DNA from: a virus | Virus record (IMG/VR): IMGVR_UViG_3300044609_000960 | Coordinates: 64,001 to 128,000 of that record | Length of the DNA: 64,000 nucleotides | Reading direction: 5' to 3' (one strand) | Shown here: in pieces, positions 6,754 through 63,684 of the stretch | Layout of the letters: every line of letters starts with the position of its first letter | Position numbering within the stretch: position 1 is the first letter of the stretch | Notes under the pieces: model-generated | Databases searched by the model: none | Told to the model about the DNA's origin: nothing | The model's input: only the letters and a program-made list of their open reading frames with translations | Made by a program: the position numbers and the translations under genes

Positions 6754-6761
6754 GTTTAAAG
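6754..6761 (+). promoter_or_regulatory. Putative phage late promoter GTTTAAAG
   Basis: Exact motif directly after the TGA and 29 nt before ATG 6791; it recurs before many structural genes. Confidence 0.75.
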
Positions 6762-6790
6762 ACACTATATATAGCGTATAGTGTCACTCC

Positions 6791-9700
6791 ATGGCAGCAT
6801 CCGACAAGAATATTTTAATCTCACCTCAAAGGGGTTCGACTACTCAGGTCCCCTCTATTGTCTTCACTGGAGATGGTAATGATCCGATTACTCTTAGAGT
6901 ACTTGATGGGGTTCCTGGTGCCTTAAGCTTTGAGGGAGGTGCAGGGCAATTATTTAGTCTCACCGATAATCTTACCTCTGGATCCATCTTCTCTGTTAAT
7001 GATGTCTCAGGGCTTCCTAGTATTGATGTAAATGCTTCAGGTCTTATTCAAATCGCCCCATTGGGGGGAACTGTAGCAATAGGTAAAAGTACTGTTGTAG
7101 CCGGAAGAACCGTTGATATCAAAGGAAATACACATATCGATGGTACATTAACAAGTACTGATATTAGATTTTCTATTATCTATGATTCTAATGACTCAGC
7201 TTATTATGCTGATTTTAATGGAACAACTAGACTTAATAATCTCCATTCAAACATAGCTACATTTGGTTCTAGGGCTAATAGCTCAAATTTTGGTGGGAAT
7301 ACTGGCGGTCTGTCTGGTGTATCTCAGGTACTCGAAGTTAGGGCTAATGGAAGTATTCCATTAATGACCTGGCATTATGAGAACATAGCTACAAGGCACA
7401 TAGGTCTAGACTCTTCTGGATTCTTACAAGTCTATAATCCCAATGAAGCTGGGGGATCTGTGCTTCAGGCCAACTCGAGTCTAAGAGCTCCCATCTTCTA
7501 TGATTCTAATGACACTGGATATTACATCGATCCCAACTCGACCTCAAACTTTGTTAGACAATACTTAACTTATAATAGCGCCTCTGGACTAGCTAACGGC
7601 TCATTCAATGTCTCTTCTGCCACTATAGGTGGATTACATTTTACAAACGGAAGCGGTGTTAGTGGAAGTGGTAATCAAGCAGCTATAACATTTATGGGAA
7701 GTTCAGCTTCCCAGGCTCAAGCGGGAATCTACGTCCATAACAATAATTCCGAAGGAACTCACATGGCTCTCTGTACTACAGATAGCTATGCGACTGGACC
7801 ACAGATAGGACTTAGAATAATGAATAGTGGTTATTCACTATTCCCTAGATCCTATGTTGAGGCGACCGGGTCATTTAGAGCTCCGATATTCTATGATTCT
7901 AATAATACTGGTTACTATGTCGATCCAGCTTCGCAGACTAATCTCAACTATCTGAGATTAGCAAATAATAATTCAATTTATTTCTCAACAACATTAACTG
8001 CCGAATTCAACCACGACAGTGATTCCACTCCTGTCGCCTTTAACATGATCAAGAGCGGAAATAGTATTACTGATAGTAATAACTATGGAGTCCTTTCTCT
8101 TGTAAGAAGAAACCATAATAACTCTGCAACTTCCGCCGGTGCTGGCCTCTACTTTGTCCTCAAGGATGATGGTGGCACTGATAGAGAATACGCCGGGATC
8201 TACGGAAAGAAAACTGTTGCTGGGGCGTCCGGTGGCGAGTTAGTGTTCATGAACTATGGCAGAAATGAAGTTGCCTATTGTAATTCTGATTTCTTCTCGC
8301 ATACTTCGGATATAAGAACACCGATCTTCTACGACTCAAATGATACAGGGTTTTATTTAGATCCAGCTTCTAAATCCAGATTAAACACTCTGTCCCTATC
8401 TGACGATAGAACCCTCTCCTACCCTGGAATCCTAAACCTTGGCAGCATCTCATATAACTACAACTTCCTAAACGGATCTTGGTCTTCCTCTATCACGGCT
8501 GGGATCATGGCGCATTGCGCCGATCAATGGGAAATTGCTATCCATGACTCCGGTACTAGAGTAGTATCTCCGTTCCTATTTGATGGAGGAAGTAATCACC
8601 GATTACTCATGGGTCGCGACATTGGATGGGGAACAATGTATATCGAGGCGGCTAATTCATTTAGAGCGCCTATTTTCTACGACTCTAATGACACTGCGTA
8701 CTATCTAGATGCCGCTAGTTCTACCACGTCGCTCTCGATCGCTGGCGCAATAGAGCAGGGTCCTAATTTCGCCCATCCAAACATCGAATGGAGCGCCTCA
8801 GGAACCTCCACCGGAATGGTGATTTTCCGTCTTCCTGGTGGAACTGGGAACTATGGCATGGTGCATATGGTATTCGATTATTACGAATACAATAGCCCTA
8901 GGACTGCAACTATTATCGTTGGTGGACATAACTGGAACGGAGCTTGGTATAACGTTGCATGTAATGTTGCAGGATTTATTGATAAAATAGTACGAGTTGG
9001 AGTTAAGGACGGGCAATATTGCGTTGTATTTGGCGAAGCAGGAAGCTCTTGGAGTTATGGCACTATTAGACTAAGAAAGATTCACAATGGTTCTTTCTAT
9101 AATAATATTATGGATTTAGGGGGCGTTTATTCGGCTTCCCAAACAACAACCGAGTCTTTTTCTAATATTTCTGCGGATATAAGAGAATCAAGAACTTCTG
9201 GGGCATTTATTGCATCTACAATAACTGCTTCTACGTCTGCTTCGGCTCCAATTTATTACGATTCTAATAATACTGCTTATTACACTGATCCAAATGGTCA
9301 ATCTTCACTTTGGGGCGTCGCAATAAGAGGGGACTATGGGTCCACGAACACTGATAATCAAATTTTCTTTTGGGGCGCTGGAAATACAACTACTTCTGCG
9401 ATAGGATTTAAAGCAAATGGCGGATCCTTTGGAAATCCTACAGGAACCGGTGATGGATATAACACGTACTTTACCATGGATACCGATGGTAGGGGATGGG
9501 TGTTTAGAAGAGGAGTTGGTGGAACTGATTTCAATTCTGCCTACAATTCTGGATGGATTTTAAATAATGGCGTTTGGCAAGCAAATAGCAGCATGAGAGC
9601 GCCAATATTTTATGATTCGAATAATACCGGATATTATACAGACCCAGCTTCAACATCAATTTTAAATTCATTAACAATAAATGGTACATTAAATGCATAT

Positions 9701-13455: not shown

Positions 13456-13463
13456 GTTTAAAG
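13456..13463 (+). promoter_or_regulatory. Putative late promoter GTTTAAAG
   Basis: Exact motif in an intergenic gap, 27 nt before ATG 13491. Confidence 0.75.
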
Positions 13464-13888: not shown

Positions 13889-15856
13889 ATGCCTCTAGTT
13901 TCATCCGGTCAAATTAGCATCGGTGGATCCACTGTCGGCCAATCAATTAACCTAGAATTAGCAAAATCTGCTACTGCTACTTCTTCTCTTAATGACGCAG
14001 ATCTGCGATCACTTGCTGGAATTGGCAGTGGGACTATAAGCCTTAGTAGTTTTTATGGTAAGTCCCTTATATCCGCTGGCATTACCTGGGGACTCTCAAT
14101 TATTAGCGAAGATGATAGCGGAATAGCTTATTCATCTACTGGAGCGGTATATGCTGCATGTTTTTTAAATGGACAGATATATACAAGTACTGATAGAGTT
14201 AATTGGACAAAGAGAGTTAGTCCGGTCGATGTCCGTCCAATACCATCCACTAATATGCCAATTCCAAGATCCATTGCTTCAAATGGAGCTGGAAGGTTTG
14301 TCGTAGTTGGTTCAAGGGGTCTAATACTAACTAGTACTAATCAGGGAGTTACTTGGACTAATTACAGTCTTGCAACAACCAGCGCATTTTTTGAAGTAAA
14401 ATGGTTATCTGATCGATTTATTGCTGTAGGTTCTTCTGGTCTTGCTTACTATAGTACAGATGGTATTACTTGGATACAACTGGGCCTTGGAACTACCCTA
14501 CCATTATATGGTGTTGCCAGAAATGGATCTCTAACTGGGGTCATTGTAGGTGGTAGTGGGGCTATTTTATATAGCCAAAATGCTATTATTTGGACATCAA
14601 CAATCAGTGGAGCGAGTGGTGCTTTTGCTGGTGTAGCAAGAGGAACTAGTTTCTTCTTGGCTATTAATGGTACTGATAGACGTCTGTATAGAAGTACAGA
14701 TGGTATTACTTGGACGGCAAATGCTACGGCAGCTCTTAATCCAATTATAAGAATTGAATTTGCAGCGGGAGTTTTTGTTATTACTAGCAGCAATAACTTT
14801 ATCTATACTACAACTGATGGGATTACTTTAACTCTCAGAACAACCGGTAATAGTCATGTAAATGCCTCACAAATTACATGGGATGGTACCAGATTCATAA
14901 GAAGTGGCATAGGATTTCAATTATTAGAAAGTACCAATGGGACTACCTGGACTAATCCCCGTGGAACGGATAGTAGTAGGATCTGGCAGATACTTGGTAT
15001 TGCTAACAGTCCCACGGTTTGGATAAAAGTACATTATAGTGAGAGAGGACAAGGTGGACTTATACAATCCAGCCCAACTGGCACGGCCCAATGGACAACT
15101 AGAGTCGCCACTACCGCTGGTATAGGATTTTTTGGAGTGACTTATTCTGGGACTACATTTGTAGCTGTTGGGACAGGCGGAGTAGTTAGAAGAAGTACTG
15201 ATGGATTAACATGGACTTCTCCTAATAGTGGAACAACGTCACAATTAAACGCAGTAGCTGCAAGAACAACAAGTAGTATGCTCATGGTAGGACTTAGTGG
15301 TATTGCATTTACTAGCCAAGATTCTGGTTCTACTTGGACATCACAAAGTTCAGGCACTTCAAATACTCTTAGAAGCATAGCCTGGGGAGCTAATACTTAT
15401 GTCGTTGTTGGAGATTCAGGACAGATTAGAACTACCCCAGATGGTTTTACTTGGACATTTAGGAGTAGTGGAACAAGTGTAAGTAATAATTTTACTAGAG
15501 TTAAATTTGTTAATAATGTATTTATTGCGGTAGGAGATTCTGGACTAGTTCGTACTAGTACTGATGGCATAACGTGGGTTACTAGATCCGTTGGTACAAC
15601 TCAACGTATTGAAGACGTAGCTTATGGAAACGGGAGATATTTATTACTAACAAGTAAATCTGTTTCTTCAGATTTCACTGGTTATTTTCCAACAGTAATT
15701 ATATACAGCACCGATCTATCGACTTGGGGATCTACTGAAGCGGTCGGAGTAAGAGTTATAGAAAAAGTTTTACATTGGGATGGAAGTAAATTTATAACCG
15801 GAGGAGATTTTGGTTTAATGAGTCAATCACTACCACCAGCAAATGCCCAAATTTGA
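13889..15856 (+). CDS. Putative receptor-binding adhesin: fibre-tip anchor N-terminus plus BNR/Asp-box beta-propellers
   Basis: N-terminal MPLVSSGQIS...SINLEL...SLNDADLRSLAGIGSGTISLSSFYGKS, followed by many STDGITWT (SxDxGxTW) repeats. Confidence 0.75.
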   Translation: MPLVSSGQISIGGSTVGQSINLELAKSATATSSLNDADLRSLAGIGSGTISLSSFYGKSLISAGITWGLSIISEDDSGIAYSSTGAVYAACFLNGQIYTSTDRVNWTKRVSPVDVRPIPSTNMPIPRSIASNGAGRFVVVGSRGLILTSTNQGVTWTNYSLATTSAFFEVKWLSDRFIAVGSSGLAYYSTDGITWIQLGLGTTLPLYGVARNGSLTGVIVGGSGAILYSQNAIIWTSTISGASGAFAGVARGTSFFLAINGTDRRLYRSTDGITWTANATAALNPIIRIEFAAGVFVITSSNNFIYTTTDGITLTLRTTGNSHVNASQITWDGTRFIRSGIGFQLLESTNGTTWTNPRGTDSSRIWQILGIANSPTVWIKVHYSERGQGGLIQSSPTGTAQWTTRVATTAGIGFFGVTYSGTTFVAVGTGGVVRRSTDGLTWTSPNSGTTSQLNAVAARTTSSMLMVGLSGIAFTSQDSGSTWTSQSSGTSNTLRSIAWGANTYVVVGDSGQIRTTPDGFTWTFRSSGTSVSNNFTRVKFVNNVFIAVGDSGLVRTSTDGITWVTRSVGTTQRIEDVAYGNGRYLLLTSKSVSSDFTGYFPTVIIYSTDLSTWGSTEAVGVRVIEKVLHWDGSKFITGGDFGLMSQSLPPANAQI

Positions 15857-15892
15857 TAAAATAGGTTAAATAATATTGTATTAATAAAGAAA

Positions 15893-16195: not shown

Positions 16196-16203
16196 GTTTA
16201 AAA
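16196..16203 (+). promoter_or_regulatory. Late promoter variant GTTTAAAA
   Basis: Intergenic, 30 nt before ATG 16234. Confidence 0.55.
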
Positions 16204-17116: not shown

Positions 17117-17292
17117 CAGTATTCGTCAGGTGACTGAGTAGATTCTATCATAGGTGCTTCGGCATCGGCACCAAAGACCTCATCAAGGGCCTTCTCAAGT
17201 TGGGCGATCATGACCTGCGTGAGGTACTTATTCCCAGAAGCCTTGGCATCACTATAAGCATCAATGAGCGTAGCTAATTCTTTCTTTCCCAT
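17116..17292 (-). CDS. Small hypothetical protein (58 aa), missing from the ORF track
   Basis: MGKKELATLIDAYSDAKASGNKYLTQVMIAQLEKALDEVFGADAEAPMIESTQSPDEY; it fills the gap and its TGA overlaps the next ATG. Confidence 0.7.
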   Translation of the reverse strand: MGKKELATLIDAYSDAKASGNKYLTQVMIAQLEKALDEVFGADAEAPMIESTQSPDEY

Positions 17293-17313: not shown

Positions 17314-17321
17314 GTTTAAAG
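17314..17321 (+). promoter_or_regulatory. Putative late promoter GTTTAAAG in a divergent gap
   Basis: Exact motif 42 nt before ATG 17364. Confidence 0.7.
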
Positions 17322-17363
17322 TTACTTAGACCTATAAACTAAAACCTCGAGGTTTATTACCTG

Positions 17364-18294: not shown

Positions 18295-18302
18295 GTTTAA
18301 AG
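18295..18302 (+). promoter_or_regulatory. Putative late promoter GTTTAAAG
   Basis: Exact motif 22 nt before ATG 18325. Confidence 0.75.
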
Positions 18303-18324: not shown

Positions 18325-20658
18325 ATGAGATACATACCTGATACAGGAAAGCAATTTGTCCTTCAGGTCCCCGAGGATAAAAATTCTTACATTAATGTAA
18401 AAAATTATGATGCTAGGGGACTCTCCACGGTATTTACTGGGAGTATTTTTTCTGGACTTGAAGACCAACTATCGATTGGATCTATTTCCGATGGTGAAGG
18501 AAAGACCCTTCAGCAATATCTAGACGTCCTTTCCGTCGGAATTGAACTCCAAGCGCATATTTACAGAGGTGTAGGATCTGGAGGAGGTGATCTTCCCATC
18601 ATCTCTGTGTCAAATGTAAACCTACAAGGGGTAAATTTTTCTAGTTCGAATGTTACATCGAATCTTATTCAACCCCTTAAGTACTATATCTTTGGCTACG
18701 ATACCTCCACGGGTAAAATGCCAAATGCTGTGCAAATTGTAGGCGCAGAAGGTCAATATTCTAAGGTCCTTGATCCTAATAATTGGAATCAAGATCAATA
18801 TGTAGATATTAATTTTACAAAAACAGGTCAATACGTAGTTCCTATTATCTACAGAGTTTGGGGAACTAGAGTTGAATTCCTAGGGATGATAGGCAATGCC
18901 AAGATCGGCTTCCCTGGGGCATCAGTTCTCACCTTTAGAGATTATGGCCTCAAAGAAATCCCAAGTTGGAATAATGATCCTGACTATTGGACACCTGATT
19001 TTCTTGATAGTGTAATCTCCATTCTTGGAGGTGTTCCAACACAACTCAAGAAAATTGTTGGTAGAGAGCATCTTAAGATCATGCCACGCATCGAAGGTTC
19101 TCAACCAAACTATATTCAATGTAAGGCTGTTCCTGATGGTTCTTTGATTAATCCCGAGGATTATCAATTTGGCGATGAGGTAAAATTTGTTATTGATGAC
19201 ACTCAGCCTATCCGCAATGCTATTAACTTAGCTGCTCAAGGTAATATCAAAGAGATCTTTTTCCCTGCTGGAACTTATCACTTTAGAAATTCCTCTTTCA
19301 TCAATACTGCTTCCACAGATTATAGCAATATTTCATTTAGAGGAATTGGAGAAGGATCTATAATAAAAAGATTGAGATCTAGTATTTCTGGATCAATTAA
19401 CCCTGGCCTTATTAACTTTTCTGGACAAGGTAGTTCGGCAAGTGTAGAAGGAATTAGGTTTAGATCTTTGGTTTTTGATGGAAACCGTTCATCAACTGCG
19501 TCACTAATCGGACCTATAGCAGGATCTATCGACCCTTCGAGATATATTGCTGAGACCCTCATATTTTTAAAATACGCAAATAATATCTCAGTAACAGAAT
19601 GTAGATTTATTGACGCCGGAGGAGCTGGAGTTCATACGGAGTTTTGTTCTGCTATCCTGCTCACTAATAGCATATTTAGTCGTCTTGGTAGATCATATGA
19701 GCCAGAGGTTCGTCCTATCGAGGTATATGAGACATCAAATTCTATTGTCCAAGGAAATATTTTTGAGTTCTGTACTTCTGGCCCATATTTCTTTAGCGTA
19801 GACTTTTCCACAATTAATAACAACATCATCCGTTCTTGCGGAGACCAAGGAGTAGTTCTTGAAACTTCGTATCAATGGAACGCAGCCAATAACCTAGCTT
19901 ATTCAGACACAGACTCCTTAATCCGTTCTGTAGATCAATATAATAATGAATACTCTAAGGCTCCGATTGAGATCCGTAGAGGCACTGCTCTTGAACCAAT
20001 TTACTTCACCGTAACAAATGGTGGTGAAACTATTGGAATTAAGAAAGACACTATTATTGCCGATATCTACGGGTTAGACGCTCTAGGTAGAAAGAATGCT
20101 TCAAATAAAATTGGATCATTTAAAGTTATTCAGACTGCCGACCAACTCGAAGCTGGAATCTTTTCAGTTACTCTACCTGGATTACAATCTGCCACAATCG
20201 ATGGCAATACAGTTCCTTCTACATCAAGTTTCTCTCTTCTAGACCCGGGTAGTAATCAATTTGGGTATATGTATGAGATCTCAGGTACTGTACGTCTAGG
20301 ATCTTCTGGCAGAGGGTATGTCCCAGTAAATATCCGAAATGCAAATATCGGTGGTACAAACTACCTTGCAATTCAACTCAGAAATTCTTCTGAACTACTC
20401 TCATTCTTAATTTTTGATGCGGATAGTGCGGAGAATGACTACATCATCATTGAAGGATTCTCAAATACCGATCTTGATGGATGGGATCAAAATTCTGCTT
20501 ATAGAGTTGTTGGTGTAGACATCAATAGTAATTCTCTCCTCATCGATCCAATCCCCAGCTTATCGCCAGGGACCACCGGAGTAGATTTCCTTGGAGGTCA
20601 ACTCTATATCCAACGTTCTAATTACCAAATTGCCGACGGCAACATTATCGTAAACTGA
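18325..20658 (+). CDS. Right-handed beta-helix (pectate-lyase-like) structural protein
   Basis: DDTQPIRNAIN...IFFPAGTY...ISFRGIG...IRFRSLVFDGN followed by parallel beta-helix repeats. Confidence 0.8.
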   Translation: MRYIPDTGKQFVLQVPEDKNSYINVKNYDARGLSTVFTGSIFSGLEDQLSIGSISDGEGKTLQQYLDVLSVGIELQAHIYRGVGSGGGDLPIISVSNVNLQGVNFSSSNVTSNLIQPLKYYIFGYDTSTGKMPNAVQIVGAEGQYSKVLDPNNWNQDQYVDINFTKTGQYVVPIIYRVWGTRVEFLGMIGNAKIGFPGASVLTFRDYGLKEIPSWNNDPDYWTPDFLDSVISILGGVPTQLKKIVGREHLKIMPRIEGSQPNYIQCKAVPDGSLINPEDYQFGDEVKFVIDDTQPIRNAINLAAQGNIKEIFFPAGTYHFRNSSFINTASTDYSNISFRGIGEGSIIKRLRSSISGSINPGLINFSGQGSSASVEGIRFRSLVFDGNRSSTASLIGPIAGSIDPSRYIAETLIFLKYANNISVTECRFIDAGGAGVHTEFCSAILLTNSIFSRLGRSYEPEVRPIEVYETSNSIVQGNIFEFCTSGPYFFSVDFSTINNNIIRSCGDQGVVLETSYQWNAANNLAYSDTDSLIRSVDQYNNEYSKAPIEIRRGTALEPIYFTVTNGGETIGIKKDTIIADIYGLDALGRKNASNKIGSFKVIQTADQLEAGIFSVTLPGLQSATIDGNTVPSTSSFSLLDPGSNQFGYMYEISGTVRLGSSGRGYVPVNIRNANIGGTNYLAIQLRNSSELLSFLIFDADSAENDYIIIEGFSNTDLDGWDQNSAYRVVGVDINSNSLLIDPIPSLSPGTTGVDFLGGQLYIQRSNYQIADGNIIVN

Positions 20659-20678
20659 TTCACTAATTCCTCTTTACC

Positions 20679-23600
20679 ATGGCAAACAAAAAGACTATTA
20701 TCGGAAAAACAGCTCCGGTGCCTCTTGGCCAACAAAAAGCTGTTAACTCTCTCCCTGTTGTTTTTGCTGAGGACCAGCCACCGATCCCTGTAGAAGAGCA
20801 GAATAAAATTCAATCAGAAGTTGCCCTAAGCCTTCTTGGTATTCCTAGAGCTGAAGTTGCTCTTGGTATTTTTGCTGACGTAAACACTTATGATATCAAC
20901 CCATCAGAGTGGTCTCAATTCCCTATTGAAAATGAGATTGATGGAGATGGAAATACAGTAACAGGTTTAAATCACCTAGCAAAGGAAGCCGGTGCTGAGC
21001 TAGTCGCTGAGACCGGACGTACCACCGTCTTAACCTCTAAACGTTTCTTCCGTTACCAACCTGGTCGTGTGTCTTCTTCCACCATGGGTGTGAAGATGAA
21101 TAAGACCGCCTCGACATACGATTCATCAACCCCCAACCGGGATATTATGAAAGGAGCCCCCTCTATCAAAAAGTGGGGAATCTTTGATAAATTCGATGGA
21201 TACTACTTCGAGATTGTTAATGGTGGGGATAAAAATGACTTCCGTTGTGTAAGACGTACACAAGCCCTTGTATATACTCAACCAGCCGGTGTGGAAACTA
21301 CCGGTGATGGATGGAATAAAATTGCCACTGCTGCTACTGGAACAAGTAATATTAAAGCTGGTAACTGGGGTGTTGTTGGAGAAGATCCAGTAATTTTTAG
21401 AAATGGCCTGGCGTATGTTGCTGCCGCTGTCTATGACCCCAGCCTCTGCTATAGCCCGGATGATGTTCTTGCTGTTGAGAACGGCGCCGATCTTAACGAT
21501 TATGAATTTGAAGAGGGATACGCTGTAAGACTTGCTTATAGAAACGCTGCAAACAACTTTGTTGAGCATCTCGCAGGTCGCCAATTCCAATTCCCATTTG
21601 ACCAGAAGGACATTGATAAAGCTAGCGCTGACTATCTTAACTGGAAGCAGAATGATCTTTTCCTTAAGCCAGCTTCTGAATACATCCGTCTTGACGCCCA
21701 CTGCAAATGGCAGGATATTGTCACTAATTTAAGTCGTGGTGGTGGGGCCACATTTAGCCCAGAAATCGGCATCTCTGGTGATTCGATCCTTGCTAATACT
21801 ACCGATGCTAGATTCGGGTTTGATACTGATCCTTCTGAGACTAATAGCGGGGTAAAGATTTGGAATTTACTTGTTAGCACCCAAGGTGCCACTCAAGTTA
21901 CTCAAACTCAATTTAGAAATAGATTTGGTGTAGATTCTCATCGTTCTTCGGCTAAAGAATACGATCCTGCATCTGAAATTTCTGATGCTGGTAAGAAAAA
22001 TATCACTCTTAAGGAATGGTTCCATCTTTGTGTACCTAAGCAATATCGTCTGGTATATGAATGGAGACCAGTTAGAGCTATGTTCTCTGGCGACCATCTT
22101 AATGGACAAAATAATGCCGTCCGTTGGAGCGATGTATCAACAGCCAACGTAGATCCTACAGATATCTCTGTTAAGCGCCCTGGGGATCCAGTCATCCTTG
22201 ATGGAGCAGTGCTTACTGACCAATCTGTATATGATATTGACTTCACTAAGGTAACCATGTGGAAGATTGAATTCTCATGGTATGGTGCTGTTGGTGCTTT
22301 ATTCCTCTGTTATGTCCCAGTTGCTAACGGTGAGGCTAGATGGGTAAGAGTCCATCACATGAGGGCATCTAACCAACTTGATGTTGCATCACTTGGTAAT
22401 GCTACTCTGCCAATCACCTACATGACGCATGGAGGTAAGGCAAATAATTTACAAGAAGGTAACAGACTAGTTAAATACGGTGCTTCATATTACATCGATG
22501 GTGGAGATAAAGGTACTGTAAGACTTCTATCCAAGGCCTCTGATTATCCTAAGAGTTCAAAATATGGTGCATTAAATGCAACTGTTGCTACGGTACCGGT
22601 ATCCAACTCTTTTGAGATTACATTTAACCAGGCTCTTCGCGATCAACTGATTGGCTCATATCTAAAAACAGATACTACCACGAAGGTTATCTGGGTTGAG
22701 AACAGCGTTACCGCCGGTCGTGTAGTTCTCTACTTTAATAGAAATGTCTCTGGATTCTTGGCGTTAAATAATACCATAGAGTTAATTGTTCCACGTAGAC
22801 AGAGAGCTATGATGGCTTTAAGGGCTAAGGATAATGTCATTAACACATCTGGCGTCGGAGTAAGAAACCGTATCCAACTCTATCCAATAAAATATAGCCT
22901 TGGATTAACTGATTTCTCTGGAGAAGATAATATTGTATCTATTAACTTTATTAAAAATCCACTGTTAATTACAAATAACCTAAATAATACTGGATTAGCT
23001 GCTACGGTCGACACCCCCATTTATACTAATTCTTCCGAGGCAAGTAAAGGATTCGAACTTGGTTCAGGAACCGTACCCAAGAAGATTTTATCAGGTACAA
23101 ATATTTCTTCTGGAAACTATTCCACACTAATAGGAACCCTTAACGCCGATGGGAAGTACTTCTATGCCTATATGCGTTCTAAGCCCACCAATGACGTTGG
23201 AAGCGGATTCCCAACCACGCCGGGCACGGATGAAGGAGAGATGCTTGTAAGGTTCTTTAATAAAGGCGGAGTTATTTACATTCAAAACTATGAGGCCCAG
23301 GCCACTGACATCAGTGTATTTGGCAACCTCATGTTTGTGAAGATGTATACCTTTGATACTGAGGGTAATATTACGGCCTTAACAGGAACAATTGGCTCCT
23401 CGGCATCTAACGGAAATCATAATAAGTACGAGAATCAGAAGAAATGGGATGCTTCTGAAATAGGAACATGGGAGTCTATTGCTTCCCTTTCCGGCGCGAA
23501 GATTTCCCAAGACTTCCGTCTTGCCCCAGTTGCGAATACAGGTAACAATATCTTCTCAATCTACGCTAATAAGGGTGGGGCTCAGTACGATCTGACAGAT

Positions 23601-23753
23601 TACTTCTCATATAATAAGGAATATATCTCTTTCCCACTTACAAATGAAGTAGATATTTTAGGAGTCTATGCTTTCTGGGAATCAACTTCCTCCGCCACGC
23701 CACCAACGACTTCCGTTGATATCGTCAATTCATTAACTTGGGAGGAGCAGTGA
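20679..23753 (+). CDS. Large virion structural protein, RYQPG family, paralogue 1
   Basis: SKRFFRYQPGR, KIEFSWYGAVG and KYGASYYIDGG motifs; ends in WEEQ. Confidence 0.7.
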   Translation: MANKKTIIGKTAPVPLGQQKAVNSLPVVFAEDQPPIPVEEQNKIQSEVALSLLGIPRAEVALGIFADVNTYDINPSEWSQFPIENEIDGDGNTVTGLNHLAKEAGAELVAETGRTTVLTSKRFFRYQPGRVSSSTMGVKMNKTASTYDSSTPNRDIMKGAPSIKKWGIFDKFDGYYFEIVNGGDKNDFRCVRRTQALVYTQPAGVETTGDGWNKIATAATGTSNIKAGNWGVVGEDPVIFRNGLAYVAAAVYDPSLCYSPDDVLAVENGADLNDYEFEEGYAVRLAYRNAANNFVEHLAGRQFQFPFDQKDIDKASADYLNWKQNDLFLKPASEYIRLDAHCKWQDIVTNLSRGGGATFSPEIGISGDSILANTTDARFGFDTDPSETNSGVKIWNLLVSTQGATQVTQTQFRNRFGVDSHRSSAKEYDPASEISDAGKKNITLKEWFHLCVPKQYRLVYEWRPVRAMFSGDHLNGQNNAVRWSDVSTANVDPTDISVKRPGDPVILDGAVLTDQSVYDIDFTKVTMWKIEFSWYGAVGALFLCYVPVANGEARWVRVHHMRASNQLDVASLGNATLPITYMTHGGKANNLQEGNRLVKYGASYYIDGGDKGTVRLLSKASDYPKSSKYGALNATVATVPVSNSFEITFNQALRDQLIGSYLKTDTTTKVIWVENSVTAGRVVLYFNRNVSGFLALNNTIELIVPRRQRAMMALRAKDNVINTSGVGVRNRIQLYPIKYSLGLTDFSGEDNIVSINFIKNPLLITNNLNNTGLAATVDTPIYTNSSEASKGFELGSGTVPKKILSGTNISSGNYSTLIGTLNADGKYFYAYMRSKPTNDVGSGFPTTPGTDEGEMLVRFFNKGGVIYIQNYEAQATDISVFGNLMFVKMYTFDTEGNITALTGTIGSSASNGNHNKYENQKKWDASEIGTWESIASLSGAKISQDFRLAPVANTGNNIFSIYANKGGAQYDLTDYFSYNKEYISFPLTNEVDILGVYAFWESTSSATPPTTSVDIVNSLTWEEQ

Positions 23754-23754
23754 T

Positions 23755-26700
23755 ATGCCAGAGTATACTTCCGGTTCTTCAATAAGGGCGGAAAGAACTC
23801 CGCCAAGAAAGTCTGTCTCAAAAAAACAAATGGTGGATTTTAGGGGATTTCCCCTATCCACCGAGGAAGGAAACCCTTTAACTACTAGTAAAGAATCGTA
23901 TCCTAAAGCCGAGTATGGAGCAGATAATGCTCCCTCGGTTGTACTTAATAGTGATTCTTATCTAAAAGACGGGATTAGTTCAGCAAACCAATTTAGCAAG
24001 AGGAATCCAGCTGCTCTTCCCATGATCGAGCAGTTTGCAGATACTTCAGAAGTTAGTCGTTCTCTATTAGGAATTAATCGTGAGACTACTCAACAGGGAC
24101 TTTTTGGGAACGTAAGTACCTATGGCCTTGATGAGAAAGACTGGAGGGTAGATGGAACTCCGAATAGAGATCCATATTTCTGGTACTCTAGACCCTCTTC
24201 CTCTGGACCTTATTTTGAAACAAAATTTGAAGAGGACACAAAAAATTCTGCATTAGCTATCTCTGTATATCCGTCACCTTTTACCCCACCAGGCAAACCA
24301 TCTCTCCAAGACCAACTAATAAACCCAGGTGGTGCGGAGAGATATAGAGGATGGGGACAATATCTCAACTCTATCATTGCTCAATATCTTATTGAGTATA
24401 TGGTAAAGAATTTTACAGAAGATCAACTTGCTGAGTTTAATCTTTTATACCTTCTCAATAAATACCCTCCTAATATCCTACCCGATGGTTCTTATGAGTT
24501 CAATCAACTCTATTGGGATAAAATTTGGTTAGATATTCAACAAACAAGATTTGGTGCTGTATCAGACTATCCACTGATTCCATCCGGCCGTGCAATAAAT
24601 TTTGTTCCAACTTCTACAGAATCATTACTTCTCACACCGTTTAAAAGCGCTGATTTATGGGGTGAAGATGGAGATGATCGAGTTATCATCCCTCAGGCAG
24701 ATGCAGCTGTTCCGAACACCTTAAGTTGCTCATGGGATAGTTTCTTATTTAGTACGACAAGAGTATATTACCCAGAAGGTAGTTCAGAAGATAAAGGCCA
24801 TTATCGGATCAAAACCAATCCTACCCCAGAACTTTGGAGTAAGTATTTTGGTCTAAATTGGGAATATTTACGTCAAGATCTTAAGGACTGGAGCTTTACA
24901 ATTCATAACTCGTCCTCCACTGTAACTCAGGTAGAGAAAGATCTTAAACTTCCGCATTTTATTCTTGATTCTCCTATCGAAGCAAATCCAAATAATATCT
25001 TCAGTTCTACGTGGCCGAATCAACAGTTCGGAGAGGCAATCAACCTACCTACTACAGAAAATAAGATAGGCGGTTCAGCTGGTGTAAGTTCAGAGATTAC
25101 AATCAAATCTATTAGGGCCTTTAGATACCAACCTGGACGGATTAGTGGATTTACCTACGGTTCCAAAGCATCTGAAATCGGTGCTGGTCCTGGTACCACT
25201 ATCGAGTGGGGAATAGAAAATGATACTGATGGTTACTTCTTTAGACTCCGTGATGGCGCTGATTTCACAATCGTTCGCCGATCAATCATCCCTCTTGAAG
25301 AAACTGATTTCCTAGCCGATTCTGGATACGCTGAAAATACCCGTGAGATTTTTTATAATGGTCGTAGACAATATGAGACCATTATAGAACAAAAAAATAT
25401 GAATGGTGATCCTCTCAATGGCGAGGGGGAAAGTGGATATATTCTCAATCCAGATACTGTCACCATGTATAAGATTGAGTTTGGTTGGTATGGTGCTATT
25501 GGCGCTAAGTTTTATGCATATATTCCAGAAGAAAATGGAGAATGTCGTTGGGTATCATTACACACTCTAGTCATTGAAAACCAACTTGGACAACCATGTT
25601 TAGGCGATCCTTTCTTCTATTTTAGATATAGACTAACAGTATCTGACTCATCAACGATTAGATTGGATCAGTACCTTTATAAGTTTGGCGCATCATACTA
25701 TATTGATGGTTATGACAAAGGTACTCTATATTCATCATACGCAAAGTCTAAAAAACGTGATTTAGTTGATCCCAAGTTTTCTGTCTCTAAGACATATCTC
25801 AACGCGATTGATTGGACAGTACTCATGGGAGTAAAACCAAAGCAGTATCTATATAATAGATATGGTAGCGAAATATACAATAAAAAAGAAATTTTCCCTA
25901 AGAGCTTTTCTATCTTCTCTCAAGAAGATTGTGAGATAAAAATCATTCGTCAAGAAGCTTGTCCAGAATTTGCTTATACTCACCAAGAAGGATATACGTG
26001 GGCCTTATTACCAGAAAACCGTAGAATGAGGGCAAAATTTAGTGTTAATAATTTTAATATTAATGAGTCGTCCTTAGGTATTACATTACAAGACGCAACT
26101 TCTCATACAGCGACATTAGCCTATGCTGGATCGCTGGAAGGAGATTGGAGATCACCTACTAATTCGCAAAATTATTCGGTCATAGGATCAGAGTCAATTA
26201 GAGTAGTGGGTGATGATTTATTCCAACTTGTAATGACGCAGAAAAACCTCGCTGGGGTTAATAGCGTATTTAAATTAAAAAGAGTAGAAAATGGTGGATA
26301 TTTATCTTCTAGAAATAGTGATCTTGAATCGGACAATGTCTATTTACCATTTACCTATGCTCAAGTAGGCGAATATACTTCTGGATATGAAGTAGAATTT
26401 GACTATTATCGCCGGGATCAAATTCTTTTATCATCAGTAAATATTATCTCTGATGAGTTTTTTATTTTCTGGACCGGAGGTAGTCGTGAAGGAATAGACT
26501 CCACTCATGCTTCAACGGTTAGATTTGGATTTTCTTGGCCCGATGTATCAAACTCATCAAGTCTTATCCATGTAAACAGAGATGTTAATTCTTGGGGTGT
26601 AGAGCTTCCAAGTGATGATCTAGATGGCCTAGGAGATGACCATGTTAAATACGACAATGAGAAATTCTATGAAGGTCTCCCTGTTGATCTTATAAAGGAC

Positions 26701-27834: not shown

Positions 27835-27844
27835 AGAACCACTC

Positions 27845-31471: not shown

Positions 31472-31494
31472 TTATTTAGAAATATAAGTATACC

Positions 31495-38614: not shown

Positions 38615-38646
38615 ATTATTGAATAGATATAGGAACTATTACCCCT

Positions 38647-39369: not shown

Positions 39370-39382
39370 TCCCAGGTAAGAT

Positions 39383-43068: not shown

Positions 43069-43069
43069 C

Positions 43070-44762: not shown

Positions 44763-44796
44763 AATGATAAGTATTCCTGCAGGTAATACGTTATGT

Positions 44797-44805
44797 ATTA
44801 TACCA
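44797..44805 (-). promoter_or_regulatory. Extended -10 promoter TGGTATAAT for the trx-sigma operon
   Basis: Perfect TGnTATAAT directly after the terminase stop, 34 nt before ATG 44762. Confidence 0.65.
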
Positions 44806-46422
44806 TTAAAGATATTTTGTAGCGGATCCTTTGCTACTTCCCATGGTAGTATTGACTTTACCCACTTCACTAGAAAGTCTTCTAGATCCACCTCGGTAGA
44901 ATGGGTCATGGACTAGGCGCGGTAATTCCTTTCTGTCCCCTCCATGGACGGTTCTACCACCCATAATCTCATCTCGATAAACGGTCACTCCATACACGAA
45001 AGCGTCTACAAAGTCGTCGTTTTTGATAAATGGGAAAGAGGTTAATTCCGCTGTTCTTTCCGCCAATGAGGGTAGGTTCTCGTAAAGAGAGACGATCCCA
45101 TCCTCTACAAGCGGGGCAATTGCGTTTGCCCTAAGTACCTTGTCTTTATTAGGTACTAATTCTTTAATCGAGATATTAATGGTTCTCTTTAGAGTTTGAA
45201 TCAAAGGGACTCCTTGGGCTCTACCCTCAATATATACACATCTTAGTTTCCAAGTTTTAACAAGTTGGGGGAAGATCTTCTCAAGATCTGGGAACTCCAT
45301 TCGATCGAGGATATAATGAATGAGATGAAGTTTACTTTCACGTTTGTCATATCCCCAGATACAAATTGCAGTATAATCATTCATCCTATCGGCCTTATAG
45401 GCCGTGTCGATAGTGGCATAGATGTAGGAATATTTACTCTTATTCTTTGAATGATACCCAAACCAATGTTCTTTAAAGATTGCACCCTGCTCACCGGCTG
45501 GTCTGCCTTGGTATAAGGAATTAAAGTCTCTATCGCCGATTGATTTCTTGATCGCCTCAAGGTTCTCCACAGGAAAAAACTGAGGCCAATGAGACTCACC
45601 CAATCTTCTCCCGAGAACATCGTTCTCTTCATCTGTACATAGAGCAGGTACATTAAGCTCCTTCCAGCCTTCGGGGTCAGCCTTAAGCAATCTACCAATC
45701 ACATCATCTACATGAAAGCGAGTTCCCATGGAAATGATTCCATGGTTAGGAAGACCACGGGTTAAGAACTGAGCCTGGGTCCAAGCAAATGTACTCTCCA
45801 TGACCGTGGGTGAGTTACCATCAGCGAGAAGGTCATCTAGAATCCCAACTCCAGGGAGTTCACTGTCATCAATTACGCCAAAACCAAATCCGGTAACGTT
45901 ACCCCCAGCCGATGCCATCTTAATCAGACCACCATTGTTGTTTCGGATGGCACTTAAATTAGATTTATCTCTATCTACCTCGCATTCAGGAAAGAGCCAT
46001 GCAAAACTCTCATGGGAGATATACTCAATCACTGCTCTAGAGTTTTCGTTGGTGAGTTGGAGCGCATAAGAGCTCATGATAAATTGGGCAGTGGGGCTCC
46101 GACCCATTTGCCATGATGGAAAAACCTTGGAGATAAGCAAAGACTTCCCTGTTCTCGGAGGTAGGGAGATAGCACTTTGCTTATAATCTTTGTCTCCGTC
46201 TCCAATCTTTTGTAGAAAGTTACCGATTACCTCATGGACATGGAATGGTTGAAACTTTCCAGCAATAGGAACTTCTGATGTTATAAATCGAGCATATGTT
46301 AAGAAGTCTGTTCGACATTTAAGTCGAAGGAGTTCTTGTTTGTCTGAAGGTGAAAGGGAAGAAATATTCCCTTCCATCTCTTTAACAATCTGCCTTTCCT
46401 TCGCGGCTTCTACCTTGTTCAT
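44806..46422 (-). CDS. terL: Terminase large subunit
   Basis: LPPRTGKS Walker A, GILDDL Walker B, GTRFH, RNase H-like acidic motifs IDTAYK and DDFVDA. Confidence 0.95.
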   Translation of the reverse strand: MNKVEAAKERQIVKEMEGNISSLSPSDKQELLRLKCRTDFLTYARFITSEVPIAGKFQPFHVHEVIGNFLQKIGDGDKDYKQSAISLPPRTGKSLLISKVFPSWQMGRSPTAQFIMSSYALQLTNENSRAVIEYISHESFAWLFPECEVDRDKSNLSAIRNNNGGLIKMASAGGNVTGFGFGVIDDSELPGVGILDDLLADGNSPTVMESTFAWTQAQFLTRGLPNHGIISMGTRFHVDDVIGRLLKADPEGWKELNVPALCTDEENDVLGRRLGESHWPQFFPVENLEAIKKSIGDRDFNSLYQGRPAGEQGAIFKEHWFGYHSKNKSKYSYIYATIDTAYKADRMNDYTAICIWGYDKRESKLHLIHYILDRMEFPDLEKIFPQLVKTWKLRCVYIEGRAQGVPLIQTLKRTINISIKELVPNKDKVLRANAIAPLVEDGIVSLYENLPSLAERTAELTSFPFIKNDDFVDAFVYGVTVYRDEIMGGRTVHGGDRKELPRLVHDPFYRGGSRRLSSEVGKVNTTMGSSKGSATKYL

Positions 46423-53811: not shown

Positions 53812-53838
53812 ATTTAAACCTTAGTAATTAGATTAAAG
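53812..53838. promoter_or_regulatory. Back-to-back late promoter variants: GTTTAAAT (minus, 53812-53819) and GATTAAAG (plus, 53831-53838)
   Basis: Each lies about 25 nt upstream of the start codon of one of two divergent structural operons. Confidence 0.6.
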
Positions 53839-59420: not shown

Positions 59421-61538
59421 ATGTCTGCAAAGTTTACAACTTCTGGTAACATCAAAGTTGATGCTGGTATCCAGTACGTAAAATTACGGATGGATATTAG
59501 TTGGAATGATAGCGCAGCTACTTATGGCATTGCTTTAAAAAGTCTCTCATTTTCAGCAGATAATAGGACCATAGAATGGTCCAGAGATGATAGTAATGAG
59601 TCTGGGAGCGCAGACCGTACATTTAATATTTCCGGGCAACAAAGCGGTGCAACAGAAGTAAGTATTAATTATCAGTCTCAAGGTACATCTTTAAATGTAG
59701 TAAAGCAAAGTGATAAAAAAATAATATTTTTAGATGGTGATGGTAGTGATGCAAATGCTACCATAACTCTATCAATATTAGAAAATGTTCCTTTCTCTGC
59801 CACTCCTCCTCCAGTAGTTCCTCCAGGTGGTGGTTTTACTCCCGCTCCCCCGTTAGATTGCCCCCCAGGCCCTTGGTCAGATCCCAATATTCCTCCACCT
59901 TGTGGGGCTCCTCCTAGTGGTATTTCCTCGTCTGATGGATTGCAAATATCCATAACTGGACAAAATCAGATCACTCTTAATCTAAAAAATTACGTAAATA
60001 AACTTGTGAGTTTAAAAATAACTCATCAGGTAGATGCGGCCTGGACACAAAGTTTTAGTTTTAATATTCCTAATTGCTCGGATATTAGTCCTGATACAGG
60101 CGGGGCACCATACTCTAAAGGGGCGTATTCTAATTCAAATATCACGGGTACTAATGTATTCTACGTATATAATATAGATGGAGGAAATAATAACTACGTA
60201 TTTAATCATAGTTCTATTGCTGGTCCGGCCCCTACCCGCCAACTCTACTCAAAACAATGCACTACAACTTGTGATGAAGAAGGGAATTGTGTTGAGACTT
60301 GTGTCTGTGTACCATCTGGTATAGAGACTTTTGGTCCTTGGCCATATTGCAATACTGGCGTGGCCATATCAAAAAATGGTGGGGATAAAGTACAATGGCA
60401 ATATGAAGATGGTGGTGGTGGAAGTTATGATGATCAATATGTCACCGTAGAAGTTATTGGAGTAAGAAATGCCATTTCGTCGGTTGGAGCTATTTGTACC
60501 TCAGCTTTAAAGGCAAATGTATGGATTCCAGATTCTACTCAAGCGGGAATAGTAGGAAACTGTATCGGAAATTATAAAAACCATTCACAAAAAATCAGAT
60601 TTAGAATCCCATCTTTAAAAGTTTCTAAGACTACTTTTTCAGATCCGGTGTGTAGTTCAAGTTTTAGAGGTGTTGCTGGAGCCGTTCCACCGAGCCAACA
60701 ACTTGGTAGTTTAAGTTCAGAGTACTCAGTCTTACATCTTTTCAATGATGATTTTTATACAACAACATCATTGATATCTGGCAATGGAATTATCGTAACA
60801 CCTCAGAATCTTGATGATGACTACCATAGTCCGTTTAATGAGGCAAATCCACAATCTAATACCAATCTTGGGACCTTAGATAGGAGATATTACACTGTCC
60901 AATTTACTGATGGAACTCAGGTAACTCCGGGCGCACAAAATATAGGGGTTACTGTGGGGCAGAATGTAACTGCTGGTGGATTGAATACTAATATCACTCT
61001 ATTTAAAAAAGAACAAGTAAATACAAATACTATGAGAGTGTGGTTCTACACTTCTTATAGTGAAAATGTTCAATTTACTAATGATATAATTCATGTATTT
61101 GATGATGATCAAAATACAACAAATACCGCACTATCAAAACTAGTAAATCCCGGTAGTATTATTATTACCCCACAAAGTTTAACTGATCCCGGTAATGGTA
61201 CTGCAGGATTTGAAACTTTGAACCAAACAAATAAAAAACATTATTTAATTACATTCTCTGATGACACCATAGTACAAACTGGTGGTACTAATATAGAAAT
61301 AGATGTTAATAGAAATCTAACGGCTAGCGGATTAACAGTGCCTGGTTTTGTGTCTAAAAAAGAGAGAGTTGACGACAAGAACCTAAGGGTATGGTTTACT
61401 TGGTACTATGCAGATAGACCAGTTGGATTAGAAAATGATAACGGATTTGCCAGAGACTGGAGTGTAAGAAGAATTAAACCTGAAAACTCTTCTGGTAATG
61501 TATTTGTTCGTAACTGGTATTTAAGTAAAATTAACTAA
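59421..61538 (+). CDS. Putative fibre-tip protein with Pro-rich linker, Cys-rich segment and tandem duplicated C-terminal domain
   Basis: PPPVVPPGGG...CPPGP linker; two copies of IIxTPQxL...YxxxFxDxT...NxTAxGL...KKExV..xRVWF. Confidence 0.65.
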   Translation: MSAKFTTSGNIKVDAGIQYVKLRMDISWNDSAATYGIALKSLSFSADNRTIEWSRDDSNESGSADRTFNISGQQSGATEVSINYQSQGTSLNVVKQSDKKIIFLDGDGSDANATITLSILENVPFSATPPPVVPPGGGFTPAPPLDCPPGPWSDPNIPPPCGAPPSGISSSDGLQISITGQNQITLNLKNYVNKLVSLKITHQVDAAWTQSFSFNIPNCSDISPDTGGAPYSKGAYSNSNITGTNVFYVYNIDGGNNNYVFNHSSIAGPAPTRQLYSKQCTTTCDEEGNCVETCVCVPSGIETFGPWPYCNTGVAISKNGGDKVQWQYEDGGGGSYDDQYVTVEVIGVRNAISSVGAICTSALKANVWIPDSTQAGIVGNCIGNYKNHSQKIRFRIPSLKVSKTTFSDPVCSSSFRGVAGAVPPSQQLGSLSSEYSVLHLFNDDFYTTTSLISGNGIIVTPQNLDDDYHSPFNEANPQSNTNLGTLDRRYYTVQFTDGTQVTPGAQNIGVTVGQNVTAGGLNTNITLFKKEQVNTNTMRVWFYTSYSENVQFTNDIIHVFDDDQNTTNTALSKLVNPGSIIITPQSLTDPGNGTAGFETLNQTNKKHYLITFSDDTIVQTGGTNIEIDVNRNLTASGLTVPGFVSKKERVDDKNLRVWFTWYYADRPVGLENDNGFARDWSVRRIKPENSSGNVFVRNWYLSKIN

Positions 61539-61855
61539 TGATAACCTCGATATCATCTTCTTCTGGGCGTAAAGCCCGACCACCAAAATGGTGGGGGAAG
61601 TTAGTAGATACTATTCCCCGCCTAGAGTTGCCATGGCTCAGACCCCAAACCTGGACACCGGAATTGGCTCAGAAGTGGATGAGAAGTATCCCATCAAAGT
61701 GCCCATTTGAACGTCAATGGTGGGTGGGGGATAGACTGATTCTCTTCATCCCAGCACTCTGCTCTCTCAATCCCCTCTCCACCCAACTCTACTCTCTACG
61801 CCTTGAAGCCCAGACGTACCTGGCCAGACTTGAGGTCGATGAAAAATCAGTTTAA
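61538..61855 (+). CDS. Mo-dependent nitrogenase C-terminal domain protein (Mo-nitro_C-like, cyanobacterial)
   Basis: IPSKCPFERQ...LFIPALCSLNPLSTQLYSLRLEAQTYLA matches the family pattern IPxxCPFER...IPPLCKLNPLYxQLxxLRxxAxxYLA. Confidence 0.85.
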   Translation: MITSISSSSGRKARPPKWWGKLVDTIPRLELPWLRPQTWTPELAQKWMRSIPSKCPFERQWWVGDRLILFIPALCSLNPLSTQLYSLRLEAQTYLARLEVDEKSV

Positions 61856-61857
61856 AG
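61850..61857 (+). promoter_or_regulatory. GTTTAAAG motif containing the upstream TAA stop
   Basis: Exact motif, but about 105 nt from the next ATG. Confidence 0.45.
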
Positions 61858-61888: not shown

Positions 61889-61903
61889 TTCTGTGATAGA
61901 ATA
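61889..61903 (+). promoter_or_regulatory. Extended -10 (TGnTAGAAT) early/middle promoter
   Basis: TTCTGTGATAGAATA, near-identical to 38005-38019. Confidence 0.65.
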
Positions 61904-62906: not shown

Positions 62907-62935
62907 TTGACTTCTAAGTTTAAAGGTCCTATAAT
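62907..62935 (+). promoter_or_regulatory. Sigma70-type promoter TTGACT-N17-TATAAT with a nested GTTTAAAG (62918-62925)
   Basis: Near-consensus -35/-10 with a 17-nt spacer directly upstream of the endonuclease gene. Confidence 0.75.
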
Positions 62936-62947
62936 GGGCCTTTTTTT
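62922..62947 (+). terminator. Intrinsic terminator-like hairpin after the SSB-like gene
   Basis: AAAGGTCC-TATAAT-GGGCCTTT followed by a T-run (GGGCC then T7). Confidence 0.6.
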
Positions 62948-63676
62948 ATGTCTAAAAATCACTACGTATATTACTCTTATGAAGAGTGGGGTCGTGGATA
63001 TATAGGAGTCCGTAGTACTAAATTAGATCCATGGAAAGATCCATATATGGGAAGCTTTAAAGATAGATCATTTAAACCGACTCGTAAAGAAATTATTGCA
63101 ATTTTTAGATCTAGGAAAGAAGCATTAGAAGCTGAAATTATTTTACATGATTTTTATAAAGTACATTTAAATTCTCATTTTGCAAATAAAGCAAAACAAA
63201 CATCAACGGGATTTAGTCAAGAAGGAATTAAAGGCAGAAAATGGTGGAATAATGGAAAACAAAGAAAACTTTGCGAACAATGTCCTGGACCAGAATATGA
63301 ACGTGGAAATCTTTTACCTGGTCAAAAGGGAAGTTTTTATGGAAAGACCTTATCTATAAAGGCACGTCAAAAATTAAGTGAATATGCAAAAAATCGTATA
63401 GGGAAAAAATCACCAATGTATGGTAAAACGCATTCAAAAGATGCAAGAAGAAAAATAAGCGAATTCAGAAAGACTTGTATAGGTGAAAAAAATCATATGT
63501 TTGGTAAAAGAGGAGAAAATAGTCCTATCTTTGGCATTACAAGGAATGAAGAAACTCGGAAGAAAATAAGTGAATATGCTAAAAAATGCCGATGGTGGAC
63601 TGATGGAGTCTCTCTTAAAAGATGCCCAGATCAACCCGGTCCAGAATGGAAACCAGGGCGGATTAAAAAGATATAA
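62948..63676 (+). mobile_element. Free-standing GIY-YIG (Seg-like) homing endonuclease with NUMOD3 repeats
   Basis: HYVYYSYEEWGRGYIGVR...YMGS...EALEAE...FAN; three GKTHSxxARxKISE-like repeats; two WWxxG...CPxxPGPE-like repeats; AT-rich. Confidence 0.88.
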
Positions 63677-63684
63677 GTTTAAAG
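63677..63684 (+). promoter_or_regulatory. Putative late promoter GTTTAAAG
   Basis: Exact motif right after the TAA, 22 nt before ATG 63707. Confidence 0.75.

Follow-up and report, generated by a model that had tools for sequence, protein, structure and literature searches.

T4-type late promoters, those of the T4-like cyanomyoviruses included, are built on the element TATAAATA, centred near -10, and are read by gp55 together with the co-activator gp33 and the gp45 sliding clamp on replicating DNA, and in the Bacillus phage SPO1 the sigma factors gp28 and gp33/gp34 replace the host sigma in a temporal cascade that serves middle and late promoters. Another arrangement is found in phages 7-11 and phiEco32 of enterobacteria, in which the phage's own sigma factor reads a single motif near -10 (a TGATGT core with a TATA element, TAATGTATA-like) without a -35 element; late promoters of this kind stand before structural genes and host-type promoters before early genes, and the sigma factor is supplied at first by a host-type promoter and at a later stage by one that it reads itself (PMC4331800). 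Here we describe an 8-bp element, GTTTAAAG, that recurs at gene boundaries in a 64,000-nucleotide (nt) stretch of viral DNA (the window), which comprises bases 64001-128000 of the 159,262-bp virus genome IMGVR_UViG_3300044609_000960 (40.7% G+C). This element is most likely the core of late promoters throughout the S-TIM5-like cyanophage lineage, and probably constitutes a single-element late promoter that is read by the host core polymerase together with a full-length sigma-70-family factor encoded by the phage. Positions below are those of the window unless they are given as genome positions.

The initial annotation of the window had used the T4-like cyanomyoviruses as its frame of comparison, and in this respect it needs correction. 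Among sequenced phages, nucleotide matches to the genome are confined to short, ~76%-identical stretches in cyanophages S-TIM5, S-TIM54, S-TIM61 and S-TIM66, and 93 reciprocal best protein pairs connect it to S-TIM5 (orthologue identity 27-86%). On the strength of these matches we assign the source phage to the S-TIM5-like (Aurunvirus-like) myoviruses of marine cyanobacteria rather than to the T4-like cyanomyoviruses. With the phage sigma protein as bait, 22 related loci were fetched from IMG/VR. The clade to which they belong is wide in base composition, some members having 51-55% G+C (for example IMGVR_UViG_3300035703_000021, of 138,862 bp) and others 38-42%, with sigma proteins that are still 78-80% identical and with the same motif.

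The promoter system that we propose resembles that of T4 and, more closely in its logic, that of phiEco32 and 7-11, and is a member of neither, because its consensus differs and its sigma factor is of another type. With T4 late promoters it has in common that one AT-rich element of 8 bp, with no -35, stands shortly before virion genes and is, putatively, read by a phage-made sigma factor acting on host core polymerase; shifted by one base, TTTAAAG and TATAAAT agree at 5 of 7 positions. It differs from them in consensus, in belonging to an unrelated phage lineage, and in a sigma factor that is predicted to contain regions 2 to 4 whereas gp55 is small, highly diverged and devoid of regions 3 and 4, a distinction that is drawn from domain make-up. 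The initial claim that the motif is not of the T4 type holds, in that only 1 of 15 copies of TATAAATA in this genome, and 1 of 16 in S-TIM5, lies upstream of a gene in sense orientation; it is GTTTAAAG that is enriched there instead. With phiEco32 and 7-11 the system shares a phage sigma-70-family factor, a single motif without a -35, a division into late and host-type promoters, and a sigma gene that could be reached from both promoter types, here to judge by the layout of the genes (the host-type element TGGTATAAT and a variant of the motif at 53812, both described below). It departs from them in its consensus, GTTTAAAG, in having cyanobacterial rather than enterobacterial hosts, and in a sigma factor whose best matches are to the SigF/FliA-like group 3 and the SigA families.

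The case for GTTTAAAG begins with its distribution. In the whole genome it occurs 34 times, as against 7 occurrences of the reversed control word, and 24 of the 34 copies are in sense orientation with a start codon at most 70 nt downstream; 1 copy is upstream of a gene in the antisense direction only, and 8 fall within coding sequence. Equal frequency inside genes or in the antisense orientation, which the initial annotation had named as the observation that would speak against a promoter, is therefore not what is found. Among all 8-mers in the 70-nt upstream regions GTTTAAAG ranks first, both here and, independently, in S-TIM5, which has 36 copies in the same layout; it precedes 24 genes in each of the two genomes, a ~20-fold enrichment. 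Across orthologue pairs shared with S-TIM5 the motif is present ahead of both genes in 22 cases, ahead of neither in 54 and ahead of one only in 17 (odds ratio 17, P = 3e-8).

Conservation is confined to the element itself. In upstream alignments of five different genes from the related IMG/VR loci the 8-mer is unchanged and the 5' flank drifts freely; a dispersed repeat element is ruled out, since the flanks are not conserved and differ from site to site. Relatives with 51-55% G+C retain GTTTAAAG: a 139-kb relative with 54% G+C has 24 copies of the motif versus 3 of the control word, and in two other relatives the corresponding counts are 29 versus 2 and 22 versus 5.

The genes that the motif precedes are predominantly those of the virion. 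For this comparison a gene was taken to belong to the closest promoter-like element that precedes it within its same-strand run, and virion structural and packaging genes were identified by their labels in the S-TIM5 record. By this procedure 40 of 45 virion structural or packaging genes of S-TIM5 fall into motif-headed units, as compared with 59 of 145 other genes (odds ratio 11.7, P = 5e-9), and 33 of 35 orthologues of S-TIM5 virion genes do so here. These findings bear out the proposal that the motif stands in front of nearly every structural unit, with the amendment that it is spread genome-wide and also precedes some non-structural genes.

Within the window there are 12 exact copies of GTTTAAAG, compared with 3.08 +/- 1.54 (maximum 7) in shuffled sequence. 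Intergenic sequence makes up no more than 1032 nt (1.6%) of the window when the genes are curated, and 9 of the 12 copies lie entirely within it (binomial P = 1.5e-14). The initial annotation listed 11 of these copies, each with correct coordinates and strand, and all 11 lie at gene boundaries and face the downstream gene as it had said; the twelfth, which it had missed, lies antisense inside gene 27845-31465 (30679-30686, minus strand) and is probably a chance occurrence without function. From the end of the motif to the start codon the distance is 22-57 nt for ten copies and 104 nt for the copy at 61850; the initial annotation had given mostly 22-42 nt.

On the plus strand, the copy at 6754-6761 begins on the base right after the TGA stop codon of 6085-6753 and lies 29 nt before the ATG at 6791 of a 2074-aa fibre-like gene, the S-TIM5 orthologue of which also has the motif. 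The copies at 13456-13463 and 18295-18302 lie 27 nt before the ATG at 13491 and 22 nt before the ATG at 18325, respectively, the latter at the head of a block of large virion genes that spans 18325-31465. Two copies enclose the TAA stop codon of the upstream gene (GTT-TAA-AG), namely 38607-38614, which contains the stop of 38043-38612 and lies 32 nt before the ATG at 38647, and 61850-61857, which contains the stop of 61538-61855 and lies 104 nt before the ATG at 61962, a gap that includes an element of a second class, TGATAGAAT, at 61894-61902. The copy at 62918-62925 precedes a homing-endonuclease-like gene (ATG at 62948) by 22 nt, and that at 63677-63684, which again begins on the base after a stop codon (TAA), lies 22 nt before the ATG at 63707. 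On the minus strand, 36686-36693 lies 31 nt before the start, at 36654, of a 1136-aa virion gene, 37540-37547 lies 57 nt before the start of a PhoH gene at 37482, and 37929-37936, 30 nt before the start at 37898, is invariant in 14 of 14 sequences (the window, S-TIM5 and 12 related loci), with diverging flanks. The rightward half of a divergent intergenic region is formed by 17314-17321 (plus strand), 42 nt before the ATG at 17364; its leftward partner is the variant GTTTATAG at 17332-17339 (minus strand), 39 nt before the start at 17292.

Of the five variants noted initially, four belong to variant classes that are enriched upstream of genes (GaTTAAAG, GTTTAAgG, GTTTAAAa/t, GTgTAAAG, GTcTAAAG and GTTTAtAG, among which G1, T4 and A5 never vary). 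GTTTAAAA at 16196-16203 (plus strand) lies 30 nt before the ATG at 16234, and the same variant is found 28 nt upstream of the S-TIM5 orthologue; GATTAAAG at 31464-31471 (plus strand) overlaps the stop codon of the upstream gene and lies 23 nt before the ATG at 31495. A second copy of GATTAAAG, at 53831-53838 (plus strand) and 20 nt before the start at 53859, stands back to back, 11 bp apart, with GTTTAAAT at 53812-53819 (minus strand), which lies 25 nt before the start at 53786 and heads a long minus-strand unit containing baseplate genes, the terminase, a thioredoxin-like gene and the sigma gene. The fifth, at 15864, does not belong with them: it is GGTTAAAT, with two mismatches, and directly follows (3') TGATAAAAT at 15854-15862, and for these reasons the junction probably uses the TGnTAnAAT promoter class rather than the late motif. 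The remark that several copies overlap or abut upstream stop codons proved accurate (38607, 61850, 6754, 63677 and the variant at 31464). The motif thereby doubles as punctuation, intergenic gaps of ~35-40 nt holding little beyond the motif and a leader.

That the element marks the start of transcripts is suggested by divergent gene pairs, between which copies of the motif stand back to back, 5-17 bp apart, within gaps of 65-84 bp (53812/53831 and, with a variant, 17332/17314 in the window; 54888/54901 in genome positions; and three pairs in S-TIM5). Both transcripts must begin inside these gaps, in which no sequence but the motif is conserved. Consistent with this view, classical -35/-10 promoters in the structural region (31000-46000) occur at chance level (37 found versus 40 expected), leaving the motif-headed units without another visible start signal; intrinsic terminators in the same region are at shuffle level. 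Contig ends of public assemblies, examined as a stand-in for the ends of transcripts, gave no information; the only record whose name indicates its kind is a metagenome.

Distances to the start codon indicate which part of a promoter the motif might be. Genome-wide, the end of the motif lies a median of 25.5-27 nt from the start codon (minimum 18, mode 22), and these distances are indistinguishable from those of the TGnTAnAAT elements (median 26-27, minimum 15-20). Because TGnTAnAAT is an extended -10 element whose last base is -7, the match in distance argues that GTTTAAAG occupies a -10-like place relative to the true start site, and the motif is too near the start codon to be a -35 element. 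Transcription would accordingly be predicted to start 7-9 nt downstream of the motif. We infer the motif's role as a transcription start signal, its timing, its start site and its pairing with the sigma factor from position, association and co-occurrence.

The bases around the motif extend its description. At 81% of sites a purine stands immediately before the motif (A at 28 of 48, C hardly ever); A or T follows it directly (+1) at 77% of sites here, and the 8-12 positions beyond are rich in A and T. The share of purines is highest, 67-81%, from +7 to +9, and TATA follows the motif at 25 sites compared with 11.8 expected from composition (~2-fold), starting mostly at +4 to +7. Thus the fuller form of the element is a purine, GTTTAAAG, A or T, and an AT-rich stretch that often holds TATA. 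The pyrimidine-purine step that the initial annotation saw 6-7 nt downstream survives as a trend only, in the purine peak and the TATA enrichment. Hairpins after the motif are striking by eye and are not a general feature (mean z versus shuffles, -0.2 here and -0.3 in S-TIM5).

Upstream of the motif we found no partner. Across 48 sites, positions -50 to -2 carry no positional information, which agrees with the earlier observation that the copies share no -35 element; an apparent enrichment of CTTTAAAC upstream is accounted for by the partner copy (the motif in reverse complement) of the back-to-back divergent pairs. This absence sets the motif apart from the promoters of SPO1, which are bipartite with -35 and -10 elements. 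Promoters of the sigma-28/FliA type have a -35 element TAAA... and, ~15 bp later, a -10 element GCCGATAA. We rejected a promoter of that type here, there being no conserved CGA block downstream, and the motif, at 18-30 nt from most starts, being too near to serve as a -35.

The candidate reader of the motif is a 261-aa protein of the sigma-70 family encoded at 43666-44451 (minus strand), in which regions 2 and 3 are followed by a C-terminal domain of four helices that resembles region 4. The protein matches PHROG 351 (E = 1e-17) and scores 23.7 bits against Pfam Sigma70_r2, just under the 24-bit threshold; over residues 23-181 it matches the NCBIfam models of SigF, FliA and RpoD (SigF subfamily, E = 4e-12), and it aligns to regions 2-3 of cyanobacterial SigA in solved holoenzymes (8gzg SigA, E = 4e-7). 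In an AlphaFold model of modest confidence (mean predicted local distance difference test score, 60) the region 2 and region 3 helices are joined by a disordered linker to a bundle of four helices at the C terminus, and in a Foldseek comparison ~240 of its 261 residues align to full sigma chains of holoenzyme structures (probability 1.0). On this domain make-up, with region 2 and 3 helices, a C-terminal bundle and ~240 residues that match full sigma chains, the protein is a sigma-70-family factor of full length, spanning regions 2 to 4, and not a minimal sigma of the gp55 type. A second sigma factor in the gene after it (43070-43768) was considered and rejected, the match being faint (E = 0.05) and unsupported by the sequences of solved structures.

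Sigma factor and motif occur together. Region 2 of the protein, whose S-TIM5 counterpart is gp108, is invariant in 12 aligned clade members (the window and 11 related loci), and enrichment of the motif is present in every longer sigma-bearing relative examined, namely S-TIM5 and three records of 89-139 kb. Among sequenced phages, close matches to the protein are confined to isolates of the S-TIM5 group, the next being ~27-30% identical, and of 203 homologues in public metagenomes the best 120 are all at least 63% identical. Among the sequenced phages and these best 120 of 203 metagenomic homologues there are no intermediates in which sigma-motif covariation in distant relatives could be followed.

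A second class of upstream element, (c)taTGATAGAAT or more generally TGnTAnAAT, is an extended -10 with no clear -35 and lies 20-60 nt before non-virion genes (window 38010-38018, 61894-61902 and 15854-15862 on the plus strand and 17142-17150 on the minus strand; genome 21330, 128232, 129968 and 135913). Elements of the TGATAGAAT type precede the genes for DNA polymerase and both ribonucleotide reductase subunits and a gene of the thymidylate-synthase region, as well as many small genes in the 15-37 kb block; the S-TIM5 equivalent of TGATAGAAT is TGATATAAT. The TGATAGAAT element at 38010-38018 (plus strand) lies 24 nt before the ATG at 38043 of the sole gene of its cluster without the late motif. 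Like the bacterial extended -10 (TGnTATAAT), to which this second class corresponds, GTTTAAAG would work without a -35 and at the same distance from the start codon. It differs in serving another gene set, and no alignment of it to TGnTATAAT retains the -11 A together with the -7 T.

The sigma gene itself is placed within reach of both classes. It is located far down the long minus-strand unit at whose head the variant at 53812 stands, and an extended -10 element, TGGTATAAT, is found at 44797-44805 (minus strand) just after the terminase stop codon, ahead of the thioredoxin-like gene and the sigma gene. TGGTATAAT is kept ~340-390 nt upstream of the sigma gene in 12 of 12 related loci and in S-TIM5, with a diverging 5' flank; it is exact in most relatives and replaced by the one-base variants TGATATAAT or TGGTACAAT in three. 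The leader that follows it contains a conserved small hairpin.

These observations suggest a cascade. Host RNA polymerase carrying the host primary sigma factor would first read the genes with extended -10 elements (TGnTAnAAT), which serve replication and nucleotide metabolism, and the conserved TGGTATAAT would give early expression of the thioredoxin-like gene and the phage sigma factor. As it accumulates, the phage sigma would bind host core polymerase and direct it to GTTTAAAG without contact to a -35, and initiation would take place at a purine ~7-9 nt after the last G of the motif, giving leaders of ~13-25 nt ahead of the virion genes. Since the sigma gene also belongs to a unit headed by a variant of the motif (53812), late transcription would reinforce the supply of its own sigma factor.

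Several points weigh against a single-element late promoter of this kind. Region 2 of sigma-70-family factors normally needs an A at -11 and a T at -7, and no register of GTTTAAAG keeps both; the C-terminal domain resembles region 4, which reads the -35 in most sigma factors, and is here without a visible -35 target. The link between sigma factor and motif rests on co-occurrence within one clade, and in GC-rich relatives the AT-rich stretch that reaches to ~+10 to +13 also fits a start further downstream. Finally, the motif heads genes that are not virion genes, including those for PhoH, the homing-endonuclease-like protein and, in S-TIM5, a glycosyltransferase, so that the class we call late may be one of middle and late genes. 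What the initial annotation had termed a distinct -10-only late promoter stands as regards its non-T4 motif, the absence of a -35, its association with late genes and its conservation throughout the lineage, and its -10 position is deduced from distance.

One alternative, which we regard as unlikely, is that the motif is an upstream duplex element of a promoter that the phage sigma reads, with the AT-rich or TATA stretch as the melted -10 and a start ~13-15 nt after the motif. The enrichment of TATA 4-7 nt after the motif agrees with it, as do the AT-richness that extends to ~+10 to +13 even at 54% G+C (where all 17 of 17 sites have A or T at +1), an ATATA-like block kept a few bases 3' of the motif at orthologous sites, and the motif's own lack of the canonical -11 A and -7 T. 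However, the position of TATA is loose, from +1 to +13 without a sharp peak, the commonest gap of 22 nt would leave leaders of only ~7-9 nt, the distance distribution of the motif equals that of a true -10 element, and the purine peak falls at +7 to +9 rather than +13 to +15.

There is a smaller chance that the motif is the site of an activator or sigma-appropriation factor made by the phage, which, like MotA/AsiA of T4, would cooperate with the primary sigma of the host and leave the phage sigma to serve other genes. The palindromic core TTTAAA would suit such a factor, as it does many protein-binding sites, the genome is rich in proteins of unknown function, and sigma and motif are linked by co-occurrence only. 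Against it, a host-type -10 (TAnnnT) is neither enriched nor positioned after the motif (27 sites versus 23.3 expected, with no peak and no fixed spacing), and the gap of 18-22 nt to the start codon is too small for a -10 at the usual spacing from an upstream activator box. Moreover, the motif is read directionally through its G...G ends (24 sense versus 1 antisense-only), and a count of enriched words revealed no other lineage-wide upstream motif that the phage sigma might read, the one other enriched class being the host-type extended -10.

Least probable is a signal in the sense RNA, either an endoribonuclease cleavage site between genes or a translation operator or enhancer, for although the motif is strand-specific, sits in tight co-directional gaps, often touches the upstream stop codon and has a fairly narrow start-codon distance (mode 22 nt), the divergent gaps with back-to-back copies are too small for separate upstream promoters, distances of 18-104 nt define no fixed geometry to the ribosome site, there is no shared RNA structure (the fold scores given above) and no match to an Rfam family in the window, and the region is not enriched in canonical sigma-70 promoters that could supply other start signals.

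Individual loci offer further observations. At 62918-62947 (plus strand) there is a terminator-like hairpin, AAAGGUCC-UAUAAU-GGGCCUUU with a U run behind it (-13.1 kcal/mol, z = -3.3); its 5' arm is made up of the motif's last bases, and it ends at the AUG of the homing-endonuclease-like gene. Transcripts that begin at the predicted 7-9 nt after the motif would lack this arm, and thus only motif-driven transcripts would escape the hairpin; an escape of this kind is known for some T4 endonuclease and late genes. A motif copy is also conserved 100-190 nt upstream of psbA (genome 8321, window -55679; S-TIM5 8047) and is followed by a classical-looking -35/-10 pair (TTGATT...TATAAT), so that psbA may be reachable from both promoter types. 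The PhoH gene (36697-37482), with a motif copy on either side, behaves like a variable cassette: in an ENA scaffold (L066) that encodes an identical copy of a 115-aa protein, no PhoH gene is called between the 115-aa gene and the large virion gene, the gap in its place being ~630 nt, and another assembly has a shorter PhoH. The IMG/VR class of the source record is inverted terminal repeats, and motif copies occur near the left end of the genome in both orientations (195, minus strand; 705, plus strand).

Full-text searches for the word together with cyanophage, which did not cover the original description of S-TIM5, returned no report of the motif, and earlier publication is possible; a 2022 paper on TIM5-like genomes makes no mention of promoter, motif or transcription, and none of the papers covered by the searches describes gene regulation in S-TIM5-like phages. 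A phage sigma factor with a late promoter of its own is a textbook idea, and what is gained here is a well-supported new case and not a new principle. It is possible, though we advance this only tentatively, that a full-length sigma factor with regions 2 to 4 that reads an element of 8-10 bp lacking the -11 A, the -7 T and a -35 represents a new mode of recognition. One sigma factor and one 8-bp site would in that event form a concrete pair for the reading of promoters without a -35 or the canonical -10 bases on cyanobacterial polymerase. S-TIM5-like phages constitute a separate, ocean-wide and little-studied lineage of cyanobacterial viruses. If our reading is correct, GTTTAAAG would provide a sequence tag for the late regulon in uncultured relatives across 38-55% G+C; together with the host-type class, the late word would sort these genomes into temporal classes from sequence alone, and the two promoter classes would predict transcription units in metagenomic contigs and flag proteins of unknown function as likely virion or late proteins.

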